Of a stretch of 64,000 nucleotides of DNA, positions 17,546 to 47,870 are shown piece after piece; positions within the stretch are counted from its first letter, which is position 1, and each line of letters opens with the position of its first letter. Under the pieces are notes generated by a model. The model made no database searches, was not told the origin of the DNA, and was given only the letters and a program-made list of their open reading frames with translations. The stretch comes from Omnitrophica bacterium GWA2_41_15. GTDB lineage: Bacteria; Omnitrophota; Gorgyraeia; Gygaellales; UBA12090. The stretch covers positions 12,000 to 75,999 of the forward strand of contig CAKKRH010000023.1 in NCBI GenBank assembly GCA_919902675.1, in the 5' to 3' direction. A program made the position numbers and the translations under genes.

Positions 17546-18130
17546 ATGACCAATAACCACAAAAAAGAAAAAGAAGAAAAGAAACCCCAGGCCCAGATAG
17601 AAGAGGAGGCCGTCCAGGAAAAATTAATAACTCTTAAAGAAGAAGAGTATAACCGGCTTAAGGAAGAAGTCTTAAAAAGCCAGGACCATCAGGAGAGGCT
17701 TCTGCGCATGCAGGCGGATTTTGACAACGCCCGCAAACGGATGGAGAAGCAGTTCCAGGACTTCACTAAATACGCCAATGAAGGCATCATCTCGGAATTA
17801 TTAGGCATCCTCGATGATTTAGAGAGAACCACCCAGAACGCCGAGAATAAATCCGCTAACCTGGAGACATTCCTAAAAGGGATAGAGATGATCCTGGCCC
17901 ATCTCTACGAGATGCTCAAGAAACACGGAATTAAACCTATTGAAGTTGAGGGAAGGCCTTTTGATCCACACACCTCCGAGGCCCTGATGCAGGTAGATTC
18001 AGAACTGCCTGAGCATACTGTGGTAGAGGAGCTGCAAAAAGGTTATTTTTTGAATGACAGGGTAATAAGGACAGCAAAAGTAAAGGTTGCGAAAAAAGAC
18101 TCTGATAATCAAAATGAACTTAAATCATAA
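17546..18130 (+). CDS. grpE: Nucleotide exchange factor GrpE
   Basis: RMQADFDNARKRMEK... and the C-terminal ...GYFLNDRVIRTAKVKV are typical GrpE. Position is between hrcA and dnaK. Confidence 0.9.
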   Translation: MTNNHKKEKEEKKPQAQIEEEAVQEKLITLKEEEYNRLKEEVLKSQDHQERLLRMQADFDNARKRMEKQFQDFTKYANEGIISELLGILDDLERTTQNAENKSANLETFLKGIEMILAHLYEMLKKHGIKPIEVEGRPFDPHTSEALMQVDSELPEHTVVEELQKGYFLNDRVIRTAKVKVAKKDSDNQNELKS

Positions 18131-18260
18131 ATCCGAAATTCTAAATCCTAAACAAATCCTAAACCCAAAATCCAAATGTTCAAAACGAACTTTGTTTTTG
18201 AGTTTTGTGTTTTGAATTTTGAGTTTGTTTAGAGTTTAGGATTTCGAGTTTAGAGTTTAA
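18131..18260. repeat. Long intergenic palindrome with C/A-rich versus G/T-rich heptamer-repeat arms (CTAAAYC / GTTTAGR), copy 1
   Basis: The left arm cgaaattctaaatcctaaacaaatcctaaacccaaaatcc... is the imperfect complement of the right arm ...gttttgaattttgagtttgtttagagtttaggatttcg. It fills the grpE-dnaK gap and is homologous to 33754-33879. Confidence 0.75.
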
Positions 18261-33004: not shown

Positions 33005-33769
33005 ATGACGGATGTCTCCGGGCTAAAAGGCGTAATCCTGGCCGGCGGATTAGGAAAGCGCCTTGAGCCCTTAACCCGAATTACCAACAAGCATTTGCTT
33101 CCGATTTATAACAAACCGATGGTTTACTATCCGCTGGAAACCCTGGTTGAGGCCGGGATAAAAGATATAATGATAGTCACCGGAGGAAACAACGCCGGAG
33201 ATTTCCTAAGGCTTATAGGTAACGGCCAGGAATTCGGCCTCAGGCACATTAACTATACCTACCAGAGAGGGGAAGGCGGAATTGCCGAGGCCTTGAGGCT
33301 GGCCGAACATTTTGTTGACGGCTCAAAAGTAGTGGTTATTCTGGGAGACAACTTAATCGGATGCTCAATAAAAAAATACGTGGAAAAATTCTTAAAGCAG
33401 GAAAATGGAGCCAGGGTCCTGCTTAAAGAAGTAAAAGACCCGGAAAGATTCGGGGTTGCTGAAATCAAGGACGGAAAGATTTTATCCATTGAGGAAAAAC
33501 CCAGGAAACCAAAATCCAAATACGCGGTTACCGGTATATATATGTATGATTACCGGGTATTTGATATCGCTAAAACCCTGAAACCCTCACAGCGCGGCGA
33601 ACTCGAAATCACCGACGTAAATAATTTTTACCTAAAGCGCGAAGAACTCTATTACGATACCTTAAGCGGCTGGTGGACCGACTGCGGCCTGCCGGAGACC
33701 CTGTATCGGGCGGCTACGCTGGCGAGAAAAAAAATACTACGAGAAAAATGTTTAAACTCTAAACCATAA
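33005..33769 (+). CDS. rmlA: Glucose-1-phosphate thymidylyltransferase-like sugar nucleotidyltransferase
   Basis: GVILAGGLGKRLEPLTRITNKHLLPIYNKPMVYYPL... and GGIAEAL..., the short RmlA-type form. Confidence 0.75.
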   Translation: MTDVSGLKGVILAGGLGKRLEPLTRITNKHLLPIYNKPMVYYPLETLVEAGIKDIMIVTGGNNAGDFLRLIGNGQEFGLRHINYTYQRGEGGIAEALRLAEHFVDGSKVVVILGDNLIGCSIKKYVEKFLKQENGARVLLKEVKDPERFGVAEIKDGKILSIEEKPRKPKSKYAVTGIYMYDYRVFDIAKTLKPSQRGELEITDVNNFYLKREELYYDTLSGWWTDCGLPETLYRAATLARKKILREKCLNSKP

Positions 33770-33879
33770 ACCCTAAATCCTAAATAAACCCAAAATCTAA
33801 AATCCTAAACCCAAAACACATGTTTTGAGTTTTAAGTTTGGTGTTTTGAGTTTGTTTAGGGTTTAGAGTTTAGGGTTTT
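33754..33879. repeat. Long intergenic palindrome with CCCTAAA / TTTAGGG-type heptamer arms, copy 2
   Basis: aaactctaaaccataaaccctaaatcctaaataaacccaaaatctaaaatcctaaacccaaaacacatg is mirrored by catgttttgagttttaagtttggtgttttgagtttgtttagggtttagagtttagggtttt. The left arm starts inside the last codons of the rmlA-like gene. It shares ttttgagtttgtttagRgtttag with copy 1. Confidence 0.75.
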
Positions 33880-44025: not shown

Positions 44026-44160
44026 TGTAGAATGTAGCGGCGGCATTTATGCCGCTGATGACTTCTGTCATTGCCCAGCTTGATTCCCCGGTCAAACCAG
44101 AAGACGCAATCCAGATGTAGCGGTGGAATTTATATCATTAATAACCAATTATAGACGCGA

Positions 44161-45729: not shown

Positions 45730-46073
45730 GCTCCTTGCCGGAAGGGGCATGAATTGAAACCTTGAGAGAGCGTAGATAATTACGCTTTACTATTTTATGA
45801 TAAAATAGTAAACTATACCTTACTATGACAGAAGAGATACTCTAAAAGGAGGGCTGTTATGGAGCTAAAGGATTATGAAATCGCGCGGGTGAGGGTATGA
45901 GCGACAAAGATACCCTTTGTTTATACCGTCACAAGCAGGCGGAAGAAACTCTAATTTCACCTTAAGTGCATTTTTGGCACAATATTCTTTTGACGCAGTA
46001 TAGAGGTTTACAAAAAATTCCTTGCGCCCGGCTGATTTCCGTGGTATAAATCGATATCTAAGAAGACCCACAC

Positions 46074-46158
46074 AGTGCTATGTTAGGAGGGGCAAATCTG
46101 GCACTTTAAAATAATCAAAACCTTCGCCGGCCGTACTTTTGGCTGGCGAAGGTTTTTT
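46074..46158 (+). ncRNA. Unassigned RNA-like element, copy A (5' stem-loop plus intrinsic terminator)
   Basis: agtgc-tatgttaggaggggcaaatctg-gcact, a linker, then ccttcgccggcc-gtactttt-ggctggcgaagg-tttttt (46121-46158). Homologous to 46779-46902. Ends 49 nt before the MNT start codon. Confidence 0.5.
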
Positions 46159-46207
46159 AGTTTCTGAGATTTTATATATCATTATTCTGGAGGAAGGAGA
46201 ATAGTAT

Positions 46208-46516
46208 ATGAGAGAGGCAAAACGCTCAAGTCTTAAAAAGATAAAGGAAATCCTTAATGAACACAAAAATGAATTAAAAGAAAGACATGAAATATCCGAG
46301 ATCGGCATATTTGGCTCTTATGTAAGAGGAGAGCAGAAAAAGAACAGCGATATTGATATTTTGGTTGAATTTGGAAGGCCAGTAGATTTCTTTGAGTATC
46401 TAGAATTGGAAGAGTATCTTTCGAAGCTTCTAAAGGTAAATGTGGATTTAGTGATGAAAAAAGCCCTGAGGCCTATTATAGGAAAGCATATTCTGAGGGA
46501 GGCTGTTTATGTCTAA
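46208..46516 (+). CDS. Nucleotidyltransferase (MNT-type antitoxin of HEPN/MNT modules)
   Basis: GIFGSYVRGEQKKNSDIDILVEF is the minimal NTase GS...DxD motif. 102 aa. Overlaps the downstream DUF86-like reading frame (ATGTCTAA). Confidence 0.85.
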   Translation: MREAKRSSLKKIKEILNEHKNELKERHEISEIGIFGSYVRGEQKKNSDIDILVEFGRPVDFFEYLELEEYLSKLLKVNVDLVMKKALRPIIGKHILREAVYV

Positions 46517-46741
46517 AAAAAGGATTTACATTGACTATGCACAAGACATAATAAACGAGTTAAAGCGCGAGCCAAATATCAGCAAGTCCCATGGAGGAGG
46601 ATCGCCGGGATGAGAGATAAGTTAATACACGAATATTTTGGCGTCGATTATGAAACACTATGGGAAACAATTAAGAAAAGGACCGTAGAAATTAAACCTG
46701 CTATTGAAAAGATGGCAAAAGATTTAAAAAAAGAAAAATAG
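46509..46741 (+). pseudogene. Decayed HEPN (DUF86-type) toxin gene
   Basis: Frame 1 gives MSKKRIYIDYAQDIINELKREPNISKSHGGGSPG* (46509-46613). A second frame, open from 46535, gives ...AKYQQVPWRRIAGMRDKLIHEYFGVDYETLWETIKK...* (to 46741). That is the DUF86 C-terminal half with the Rx4H motif RDKLIH. The central part of a normal DUF86 protein appears to be missing and the halves are out of frame. Confidence 0.65.
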
Positions 46742-46778
46742 CTTTCAATGGTATAAAAGCCTTATAAAGAAAGGTTAT

Positions 46779-46902
46779 AGTGCTATGTTAAGAAGGGGTA
46801 AATCTGGCACTTTCCGCCAAAGGCGGATCCGCCAAGCAATGTGGCGGAAAAACAATCAAAACCTTCGCTGGCCATACTTTTGGCTGGCGGGGGTTTTATT
46901 TT
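46779..46902 (+). ncRNA. Unassigned RNA-like element, copy B (with a 40-nt hairpin-forming insertion)
   Basis: It has the same 5' stem-loop (agtgc...gcact) and terminator (ccttcgctggcc-atactttt-ggctggcggggg-ttttatttt) as copy A. An extra ccgccaaaggcggatccgccaagcaatgtggcggaaaaac lies at 46814-46853. Ends 30 nt before a small ORF. Confidence 0.5.
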
Positions 46903-46932
46903 ATATGAAAGGTAATACTGACAGGTGAAAAC

Positions 46933-47097
46933 ATGGTAAAAAAGCGGGCTAAAAAGATTATTCCATGCCGGCACGATTATAAAAACGCAATTAAAGTTGG
47001 AAATGTTGATTACGCGTGTCCATTATGTAAAGAGCTCTTAGACCCTTTGGAGTGGTTTTTTATGAATAGCTTTGAGTTTGTTGATTTAGTAACATAA
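46933..47097 (+). CDS. Hypothetical small Cys/His-containing protein (not in the ORF track)
   Basis: My own translation: MVKKRAKKIIPCRHDYKNAIKVGNVDYACPLCKELLDPLEWFFMNSFEFVDLVT*. SD aggtga lies 5 nt upstream. Confidence 0.3.
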   Translation: MVKKRAKKIIPCRHDYKNAIKVGNVDYACPLCKELLDPLEWFFMNSFEFVDLVT

Positions 47098-47139: not shown

Positions 47140-47421
47140 ATGACAGACTATTTTTGGGCAAAAACAACACAAGATGGCAGGCCGGGAAAATCGGTAGCTG
47201 CGCATAAGCGCGATGTTCAATCCGTAGCCAATATAATGCTGGATGGAAAAGAAAGCCTATTGGTTCGATATGGTTTGAAAAGAGAATTTGTCGCCGCATT
47301 TACCGGTTTGCATGATATAGGCAAAGTTTCGCCTGGTTTTCAATCAAAATGCAAAGAATGGTTAAGGAAAAGCGGTCTTGAGCGAACCGCACGGAACAAT
47401 GCGTGGGATGAACCGGTTTAA
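47140..47421 (+). pseudogene. cas3: cas3 fragment (N-terminal HD domain only), truncated at a CRISPR repeat
   Basis: MTDYFWAKTTQDGRPG...AAHKRDVQSVA...FTGLHDIGKVSPGFQ matches the type I Cas3 HD N-terminus (YWAKS...H..DV...LHDIGK). The ORF ends by reading into repeat-derived sequence gcgtgggatgaaccg (47401-47415). Confidence 0.8.
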
Positions 47422-47537
47422 TAGGATTTCAGAAGGGGCATCCAAGAATGTTCCCCACACGCGTGGGGATGAACCGTTACGATAAATGGCGAAATGCAAA
47501 ACTTAAAGATGTTCCCCGTGAAGCCATCAGATTTGTG
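47401..47537 (+). CRISPR. Remnant type I-E-like CRISPR array (partial repeat, spacer, full repeat, spacer, degenerate repeat)
   Basis: Full 29-nt repeat atgttccccacacgcgtggggatgaaccg at 47448-47476 (compare the E. coli I-E repeat GAGTTCCCCGCGCCAGCGGGGATAAACCG). The 3' part of a repeat lies at 47401-47415. Two 32-nt spacers lie at 47416-47447 and 47477-47508. A degenerate terminal repeat atgttccccgtgaagcc... starts at 47509. Confidence 0.8.
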
Positions 47538-47585
47538 TGGACAAGGTGTGTACAATATGGTATTCTTTATGTGAGAGAAAGGAGG

Positions 47586-47870
47586 ATGAAAATGGCACAT
47601 ACTCTTCAGAAGAATCATCGCATGGATTTGCGCGTTAAGGCTGATAAAAAAGAACTCTTGAATTACGCGGCTTCTCTTCAGAATTTGAGCCTTTCAGCGT
47701 TTGTATTGGCGAGCGCCTTGAAAGAGGCACAGGCGGTCGTAACCGAAAAGGCGCATTTTTCACTACCCGCCAAGGAGTGGAAGTCTTTTTGCGCCAGGCT
47801 TGATCAACCGGCGCAATCAATTCCTAAATTAAAAAAGCTTTTTTCACAACTAAGCGTATTTAATGAGTGA
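47586..47870 (+). CDS. tacA: DUF1778 (TacA-type, RHH) antitoxin
   Basis: ...RMDLRVKADKKELLNYAASLQNLSLSAFVLASALKEAQAVV is a typical DUF1778. SD aaggagg precedes the ATG at 47586. The track ORF's 5' extension (47448-47585) is a translation of the CRISPR remnant. Confidence 0.8.
   Translation: MKMAHTLQKNHRMDLRVKADKKELLNYAASLQNLSLSAFVLASALKEAQAVVTEKAHFSLPAKEWKSFCARLDQPAQSIPKLKKLFSQLSVFNE

Follow-up and report, generated by a model that had tools for sequence, protein, structure and literature searches.

Two copies of a structured element in a defence island

We analysed a stretch of 64,000 nucleotides (nt) from Omnitrophica bacterium GWA2_41_15 (contig CAKKRH010000023.1, positions 12,000 to 75,999; hereafter the window), which carries on its plus strand two homologous copies, A (46074-46158) and B (46779-46902), of the short element that is the subject of this report. 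The element sits in a toxin-antitoxin (TA) and defence island between a radical-SAM gene and rpoN, where the order is PIF1-WYL helicase, copy A, MNT and a broken HepT/HEPN gene, copy B, an open reading frame (ORF) of 54 codons, a Cas3-HD fragment, TacA/TacT, an RNase_T exonuclease, MazE/PIN and rpoN. A first-pass annotation, made from the letters alone, had described two copies with a layout of three parts, and both its coordinates and this layout hold on the evidence of sequence, folding and a shuffle expectation of 0.00. Common to A and B are a 5' hairpin (arms AGUGCUA ... UGGCACU, with a purine-rich loop), an A-rich linker that ends in AAUCAAAA, and an intrinsic terminator of 17 base pairs (bp).

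In the predicted fold of copy A, hairpin 1 (46074-46105) has an outer stem GUGCUA/UGGCAC plus a weak A-U pair, an inner stem GUU/AAU and the loop AGGAGGGGC, and contains the sequence GUU-N-GRAGG-N3-AAAUC that is invariant in the family described below. The A-rich linker UUAAAAUAAUC (46106-46116) continues into the A-tract of the terminator (46117-46158), for which the terminator scan and the fold agree on a 17-bp stem AAAACCUUCGCCGGCCG / UGGCUGGCGAAGGUUUU, a loop UACUUU and a U-tract that runs to 46158. Hairpin 1 of copy B (46779-46811), placed by alignment and folding, has a loop, AAGAAGGGGU, that is 1 nt longer than that of A; the linker AAAACAAUC and terminator of this copy (46849-46903) comprise a stem at 46858-46897 and an interrupted U-tract to 46903. 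Both terminators accordingly combine 17-bp stems holding 8-9 GC pairs with T-runs (46117-46158 and 46858-46903). Between hairpin and linker, copy B has a long-form insert (46814-46848) which folds as two GC-rich hairpins, CCGCC/GGCGG (46814-46826) and CCGCCA/UGGCGG (46829-46847); it had been read as two hairpins in 40 nt, of which the hairpins stand and the length becomes 35 nt by alignment. The three differences between A and B in the 12-bp stem considered originally (C-G to U-G, and two U-A to U-G) are as first described, and the full 17-bp stem adds another at the pair that closes the loop (G-U to A-U), which also keeps pairing.

Relative to shuffled sequences the plus strands of A and B fold with z-scores of -5.4 and -5.75, respectively, and the minus strand of either copy is some 10-14 kcal/mol less stable than the plus strand. 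A linker/terminator pattern occurs twice in the window, and the hairpin pattern, exact or degenerate, occurs only at A and B, in each case against a shuffle expectation of 0.00; neither pattern nor covariance-model searches found a third copy within the 64 kb.

The element belongs to a family of at least 18 members

Searching for more copies with a covariance model, a step proposed in the first-pass annotation, did find them, and together with pattern searches 18 copies were recovered in 17 different sequence neighbourhoods, the copies L019 and L023 having their upstream flank in common. The element is an uncatalogued family, with at least 18 members in a clade of Candidatus Omnitrophota and on uncultivated phage-like contigs; the copies come from a sister Omnitrophota metagenome-assembled genome (MAG), from groundwater and other metagenome contigs, and from phage-like contigs in IMG/VR. 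Among species-representative genomes the hairpin pattern gave one match, an Omnitrophota MAG (L007; RpoN 93% identical), in which a covariance model built from three copies located a second copy, 2.4 kb from the first and in the same orientation. Like the pair in the window, the L007 copies surround TA-type cassettes. A second pattern, applied to metagenomes, led to eight real loci (L016-L021, L023 and L024), six of them distinct (L016 = L018, L017 = L020); it fixed both hairpin arms, so that these copies are uninformative on hairpin covariation. Six others (L042, L148, L138, L154, L146 and L158) were obtained with linker-only or terminator-only patterns in the viral collection and a model screen, and since no hairpin pattern was used in their retrieval, covariation in their hairpins was not forced by the search. 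Two more, L160 and L161, were added by a hairpin pattern specific to a subgroup.

Other searches were unproductive. A metagenome pattern demanding GGGG in the loop gave no matches, BLAST against annotated phage and plasmid collections gave none, and in relatives whose RpoN is 67-79% identical (L009, L013/L014 and L015) the islands preceding rpoN contain TA genes and no copy. Two candidates, L008 and L022, were discarded as chance matches, as which 105 of the 106 viral stretches returned by a 16-nt linker pattern also appear; 80 of these stretches were screened by the model, which gave a score to L042 alone.

Different loci are homologous over some 150 nt only, from the -35 region through the U-tract, and the homology between copy A and the first L007 copy (L007-1) extends over the promoter. 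The stem and U-tract of an intrinsic terminator are present in L007, as in all aligned copies. The long form of copy B recurs in L017/L020, where the same two hairpins have different stem lengths and different stem and loop sequences; because of this recurrence the insert seems, from sequence comparison, to behave as an optional structured domain, not as a random insertion.

The element is an RNA family new to Rfam, of a known general kind: scanning the whole window against Rfam 15 gave no match at gathering thresholds, in keeping with the original failure to assign it to a known family, and a permissive scan of the element and four related loci returned only sub-threshold matches (E >= 0.3). 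Those to Fibrobacter-1, CRISPR-DR46, Esr41 and L10-leader were rejected as sub-threshold and non-recurrent. In the first of these, Fibrobacter-1 RNA (RF02983), copy B aligns through its two small hairpins and a hairpin with loop CCAUACUUUUGG; at 18.9 bits against a gathering threshold of 77.9 (E = 0.75), and with no such match in the other long-form copy or in any other, this is treated as chance. No tRNA or tmRNA was found, and a resemblance to a T-loop (GUUCGAA) fails on a C position that varies.

Covariation, strand and invariant sequence

Covariation statistics were calculated on 16 aligned copies of the 18, to which the counts in this section refer unless stated otherwise. Standard pairs occupy 95% of pair cells, and ten pairs have changed on both sides, four in the hairpin and six in the upper terminator stem, which covaries freely. 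None of 500 shuffles matches the observed pairing values, and controls in which the partners were slid yield 2-4 pairs changed on both sides. In the hairpin, two-sided changes fall at alignment columns 8/34, 9/33 and 11/31, and 13/29 goes from G-U to G-C, the inner G-U to G-C change being seen twice. The hairpin of the phage-like subgroup, GUCCCGA/UCCCGGAC as against GUGCUAU/AUCUGGCAC, differs by G-C to C-G and A-U to G-C changes with one C-C mismatch, and that of L042 by C-G to G-C at another pair.

The pairs also indicate the strand. There are 66 G-U cells and 2 A-C cells, and the summed minimum free energies are -567 kcal/mol for the plus strand and -417 kcal/mol for the minus strand, a difference of 150 kcal/mol. 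The G-U excess and the greater stability of the plus strand therefore point to an RNA read in the direction of the downstream genes, and rule out both a minus-strand product and a palindrome acting as DNA. The first-pass annotation had argued for a transcribed plus-strand RNA, and against a DNA site or minus-strand gene, from the three wobble substitutions between A and B; that argument is borne out by the larger alignment, where stem substitutions in the additional copies preserve pairing and include compensatory changes in both helices. The element is, with high confidence, a genuine plus-strand structured RNA family.

The hairpin keeps GU..(stem)..GUU-N-GRAGG-N3-AAAUC..AC, and the A-rich linker is kept in 17 of all 18 copies and nearly absent in L021. 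The base of the terminator left arm, AAAACCUUCG, is invariant (16/16), as is CCUUCG (16/16), while the right arm drifts between GAAGG, GGAGG, GGGGG and GAGGG. The hairpin loop reads GAAGG in 14/16 copies and GGAGG in 2/16, in either case an exact or wobble complement of CCUUC, which the loop GRAGG fits rather than the best Shine-Dalgarno sequence.

Promoters and downstream genes

Upstream of copy A lies a sigma70-like promoter (46022-46050, plus strand) recognised from its sequence, with -35 TTGCGC (46022-46027), a 17-nt spacer, TG at 46042-46043 and -10 TATAAA (46045-46050), for which the predicted transcription start is near 46057. Copy B has an extended -10, TGgTATAAA (46749-46757, plus strand), identified by sequence and by alignment with A and L007-1; its -35 position is poor and falls within the 3' end of the broken HEPN gene. 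In the family the promoter takes the form TTGCCn or TTGACn, 16-17 nt, often with TG, and TATAAn, and the distance from the end of the -10 to the hairpin is 20-25 nt in 12 of the 18 copies. Scores of at least 9/12 against consensus are reached by 12/18 copies and by 15% of shuffles. The 5' single-stranded end varies among copies. Judged from sequence, each copy is most likely a self-contained transcription unit from promoter to terminator, and the promoter would drive a plus-strand RNA of about 100 nt (A) or about 140 nt (B) with a short, variable 5' end.

In every resolved copy a co-oriented ORF lies 3' of the element. The first-pass annotation had proposed recording the genes downstream of other copies, and these proved to be defence, TA or mobile-element cargo: besides MNT and the 54-codon ORF in the window they are ORF6N; MazE/PIN; Bro-N; Schlafen-AlbA_2; DUF5677 with an SNF2-like helicase; HsdM (twice); an N4/N6 methylase with a presumed nuclease; a type I-C-like cas operon; DUF2188 followed by restriction-modification (RM) genes (twice); and an RHH gene followed by variable RM systems (four times). 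The association of the element with defence, TA or mobile-element genes is strict among resolved copies.

The distance from U-tract to start codon is at most 58 nt in 11 neighbourhoods: 49 nt (A to MNT) and 35 nt (B to the 54-codon ORF), within the 30-50 nt originally given for the two copies, and elsewhere 41, 42, 20, 44, 1, 58, 31 and about 29 nt. Gaps of this size are too short to hold a separate promoter and 5' untranslated region. In a promoter scan covering the window and L007, the gaps that follow A, B and L007-1 gave no site; the gaps of the remaining copies were judged by eye and by length. The order of promoter, element and promoterless co-oriented ORF, i.e. the placement of a cis-acting leader, is thus found in the 11 short-gap neighbourhoods. 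In L042 the methylase ATG follows straight after the U-tract (gap 1 nt) and its GGAGG Shine-Dalgarno sequence lies inside the 3' arm of the terminator, so that this methylase can be expressed through the element only. U-tracts are weakest in the two copies whose gaps are shortest. In L019 and L023 the upstream flank and element are alike and the cargo differs from the U-tract onward.

A proposed promoter-proximal attenuator leader

Taken together we consider it about as probable as not (roughly 0.5) that the element acts as a promoter-proximal attenuator leader from which a small RNA is produced as well, a reading drawn from sequence and predicted structure. Most transcripts would end at the terminator and release the small RNA, and the downstream gene (MNT/HEPN after A, the 54-codon ORF after B) would be transcribed by read-through only. 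How much read-through occurs would depend on which of two competing partners pairs with the invariant CCUUC in the terminator 5' arm: the hairpin-loop GRAGG, forming a pseudoknot-type antiterminator, or the GRRGG of the terminator 3' arm. A CCUUC with two possible partners has the logic of an antiterminator/terminator pair, and we infer the loop-CCUUC step from this arrangement; in modelling, truncated transcripts of several copies fold loop-to-left-arm with an energy equal to that of hairpin 1. The terminator-based cis-regulatory leader suggested by the first-pass annotation is accordingly now the leading model, plausible and short of proof.

Terminator-type attenuator and riboswitch leaders include pseudoknot aptamers with an A-rich 3' tail, as in the preQ1-I and fluoride classes. 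The element resembles these in its succession of promoter, conserved hairpin, A-rich tail, terminator and ORF, in a loop that complements the terminator 5' arm and, in one case (L042), in a Shine-Dalgarno sequence within the terminator; it differs from riboswitch leaders in having one small conserved hairpin, heterogeneous downstream genes and an unusually long terminator. Another precedent is provided by the P4 CI RNA and the P1/P7 c4 RNA, small immunity RNAs that come from an operon leader and whose loop complements a site further down the transcript, pairing of which causes termination in P4 and blocks the ribosome-binding site in c4. The present element shares with them a predicted leader-derived small RNA, a downstream loop complement, residence in phage-like DNA and, in some copies, a place upstream of antirepressor-type genes (Bro-N, ORF6N). 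In contrast, its loop is Shine-Dalgarno-like, the complement lies in a terminator arm and pairing would prevent termination; the Rfam C4 model does not match the element.

Several observations weigh against the attenuator leader. The loop-CCUUC helix has only 5-6 bp, compared with 17 bp (about -25 kcal/mol) in the terminator, which thermodynamically always wins, so that the output may be mostly small RNA. Covariation is uninformative on the loop-CCUUC pairing because both partners are invariant, and support from covariation for the hairpin itself is real but modest, with about three independent compensatory events. L021 is nearly devoid of a linker, which strains the pseudoknot geometry. The downstream genes make up one functional class and share no common family, which is unusual for a ligand-sensing leader. 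Finally, downstream genes have their own promoter in the second L007 copy (TTGACA-17-TATACT) and, with a palindromic operator, in L148, L138, L154 and L158; in the second L007 copy and in this RHH-RM group the element looks like a separate small-RNA gene.

Alternative explanations

The main rival, which we rate as less probable than the leader though not remote, is that the element is a stand-alone small RNA gene, the terminated RNA of about 100 nt acting in trans by binding a protein at the sequence-invariant hairpin or by base-pairing. On this account proximity to defence genes would reflect residence in fluid islands and mobile elements, and the idea is compatible with the leader model. Most copies have their own promoter-like site and a very efficient-looking terminator, the unit of homology runs exactly from promoter to U-tract, and the operons downstream of L148, L138, L154, L158 and L007 copy 2 have their own promoter or operator. 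The A-rich stretch followed by terminator and U-tail also resembles the 3' module of chaperone-dependent small RNAs. However, the 5' single-stranded end, the usual location of a seed, varies between copies; all resolved neighbours are co-oriented, most starting within 60 nt with no visible promoter (three gaps scanned, others by eye); and in L042 the Shine-Dalgarno sequence of the next gene sits within the terminator. No base-pairing targets were found in the flanks, the conserved parts being the hairpin loop and the terminator base. Of the features expected of a trans-acting small RNA, promoter and terminator are present, and a conserved single-stranded seed with targets was not found. An exact 11-nt complement of the terminator 5' arm (CTTCGCTTGAA) was noticed in the downstream methylase gene of L042 (L042:4134-4144); it was judged to be chance and does not recur in other loci (chance expectation about 0.002 per locus).

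It is improbable that the element is instead a DNA site, resembling att or attC or serving as a homology arm for cassette exchange, with the window pair as insertion scars of MNT/HEPN. Same-orientation pairs of copies do flank TA cassettes in both the window and L007, the cargo swap between L019 and L023 occurs exactly at the 3' end of the element, and the element is always at the border of variable cargo; integron attC sites and Vibrio cholerae repeats are likewise direct repeats of about 100 nt with hairpins that flank small, often TA, cassettes. Unlike attC, the element has its own conserved promoter as part of the unit and is under selection for plus-strand RNA pairing (the 66 G-U against 2 A-C cells and the compensatory changes), not for a DNA palindrome. 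On direct reading the RYYYAAC/GTTRRRY cores and extrahelical bases of attC are absent (TCAAAAC/GTTTTTT, in a fully paired stem). No recombinase or integrase domain was found among the ORFs at 43-52 kb, and no recombinase among those adjoining other copies; the phage-like group swaps its cargo after the RHH gene, not at the element. The first-pass annotation had also entertained mobilisation of the MNT/HEPN cassette by direct repeats, and this is not supported: all 18 copies are full-length units, no partial or 3'-only, att-like copies were found, and the genes at the other loci are unrelated.

A CRISPR-derived regulator resembling a CRISPR RNA, in which degenerate type I-C repeat tails (like ATTGAAAC) flank a spacer-like segment and guide Cascade to a promoter, is very improbable. 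What invites it is that a type I-C-like operon (cas5d, cas8c, cas7, cas3) comes directly after the L024 copy, that Cas3 N-terminal remnants follow copy B and L007-1, that some 5' leaders terminate in ATTGAAAC or ATTGAGAC and the linker reads AATYAAAAC, and that a solo I-C-like repeat occurs 315 nt upstream of copy A, stand-alone repeats being common in I-C loci (PMC10120712). Against a cognate repeat taken from a close Cas7 relative, GTCGCCCCTCGCACAGGGGCGTGGATTGAAAC, the element nevertheless aligns no better than shuffles (p = 0.06 to 0.97), and for neither candidate spacer was a PAM-flanked (protospacer-adjacent motif) seed match detected in the vicinity. Close relatives of the L024 cas operon are without the element and most copies adjoin non-cas genes: a cas locus is near L024, cas3 remnants only are near B and L007-1, and the other copies have neither. 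The AAAAC motif is accounted for by the A-tract of a palindromic terminator. With CreR, CreA and mini-arrays (PMC10120712; bioRxiv 10.1101/2023.03.10.532045) the element shares a place ahead of a type I-C cas operon in one copy, next to cas3 remnants in others, and the character of a small, promoter-driven, terminated RNA; it differs in that repeat similarity is not significant, no target with PAM and seed was found, and related cas operons are without it.

A functionless local duplication of promoter and terminator, or the remnant of a coding 3' end, is scarcely credible: the window has just two copies, their island is decaying (its HEPN gene is broken and of cas3 there is a fragment), and minus-strand ORFs span each copy, but the family has 18 copies in unrelated flanks, with covariation, and its reading frames are not kept across copies, which answers the concern over a duplicated coding 3' end raised in the original annotation (the frame of a coding 3' end or leader peptide is broken between A and B by the 1-nt loop indel and the 35-nt insert, and a plus-strand mini-ORF loses its AUG in the phage-like subgroup, which has CGAGUU).

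Other features of the island and of related loci

The MNT nucleotidyltransferase antitoxin gene after copy A (46208-46516, plus strand; Pfam NTP_transf_2, 1e-18) encodes a protein also found on a 2.15-Mb groundwater contig. It is intact, while the HepT-like HEPN toxin gene that follows (46509-46741, plus strand) lacks the middle of its domain, consisting of ORFs of 34 and 43 amino acids in different frames and matching Pfam HepT-like over profile positions 86-120 only; the MNT/HEPN cassette appears to be decaying. After copy B come the 54-codon ORF (46933-47097, plus strand), with a weak DUF7830 match, and an N-terminal fragment of the Cas3 HD domain (47140-47421, plus strand, 93 codons; Pfam Cas3_HD, 1.7e-11). 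The TacA ORF as listed (47448-47594) includes an N-terminal extension of about 48 codons that has no domain match, and the real TacA start is probably near 47595, leaving about 170 nt after the Cas3 fragment. The best relatives of RpoN, at the end of the island, are from Omnitrophota.

A type I CRISPR-Cas locus, now decayed, forms part of the island. The solo I-C-like repeat, GCTCCTTGCCGGAAGGGGCATGAATTGAAAC (45730-45760, plus strand), lies directly after the PIF1-WYL stop codon and can form a 7-bp stem; within it (45742-45760), 18 bases align to the 3' part of a real I-C repeat and 16 of them are identical (p < 0.002), and a small hairpin with a T-tract follows (45767-45795). It could be the relic of an array or a gene for a cr-like RNA, for which no target was found, and by its presence the island holds the remains of a type I-C locus. 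The I-C-like operons related to that of L024 open with a stub of the Cas3 HD domain, 50-64 codons long (MKKFYAHS...), and have an intact cas3 after cas7; the stubs are at L024:481-654, L007:5551-5703 (minus strand), L027:6981-7175 and L028:5913-6083, that of L007 being recognised by sequence alone with no Pfam match. This conserved stub, from which the Cas3_HD fragment retained in the window is different, may have been kept as a 5' piece that serves regulation or translational coupling.

Comparison with L007 bears on the history of the island. L007 (6544-6518) joins two segments that are apart in the window, namely 27 nt that follow the radical-SAM gene (44033-44059) and the promoter region of copy A (46012 onward), and therefore the PIF1-WYL gene was either inserted in the lineage of the window or deleted in the other. 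Elsewhere in the window, two intergenic regions hold AT-rich short tandem repeats (18121-18258 and 33759-33816) with units of 7, 14, 25 and 32 nt (TAAATCC, GTTTAGAGTTTAGAATTTCGAGTTT and the like).

In the four phage-like contigs with a downstream promoter of their own (L148:4850-4912, L138, L154 and L158), this promoter is conserved and carries a perfect palindromic operator, ATTGCTATAAATATAGCAAT, and the same contigs have an RHH-like gene of 52-65 codons before interchangeable RM systems (Dcm, type I HsdMS and others). Operator and RHH gene together look like a controller-protein module with swappable cargo.

Implications

A broader form of the attenuator-leader model would make the element a portable antiterminator leader, common to Omnitrophota chromosomes and phage-like elements, that gates whatever defence gene follows (RM, TA, type I-C Cas or Schlafen-AlbA_2) in response to a common cue. 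We regard this generalisation as unlikely; the cue might be infection, a signal of nucleotide type, or a protein of host or phage bound to the invariant GUU-N-GRAGG-N3-AAAUC loop. If the terminator does prove to be conditional, it would place immune systems of very different kinds under one shared control point, and would be a ready marker of the 5' edge of defence islands in Omnitrophota. Should a small RNA be its sole product, the element still adds a new conserved RNA to those of a candidate phylum and the viruses of that phylum. The RNA regulators of Omnitrophota, which are uncultivated, are almost wholly uncharted, and the covariance model and pattern set assembled here are directly applicable to metagenomes and metatranscriptomes.

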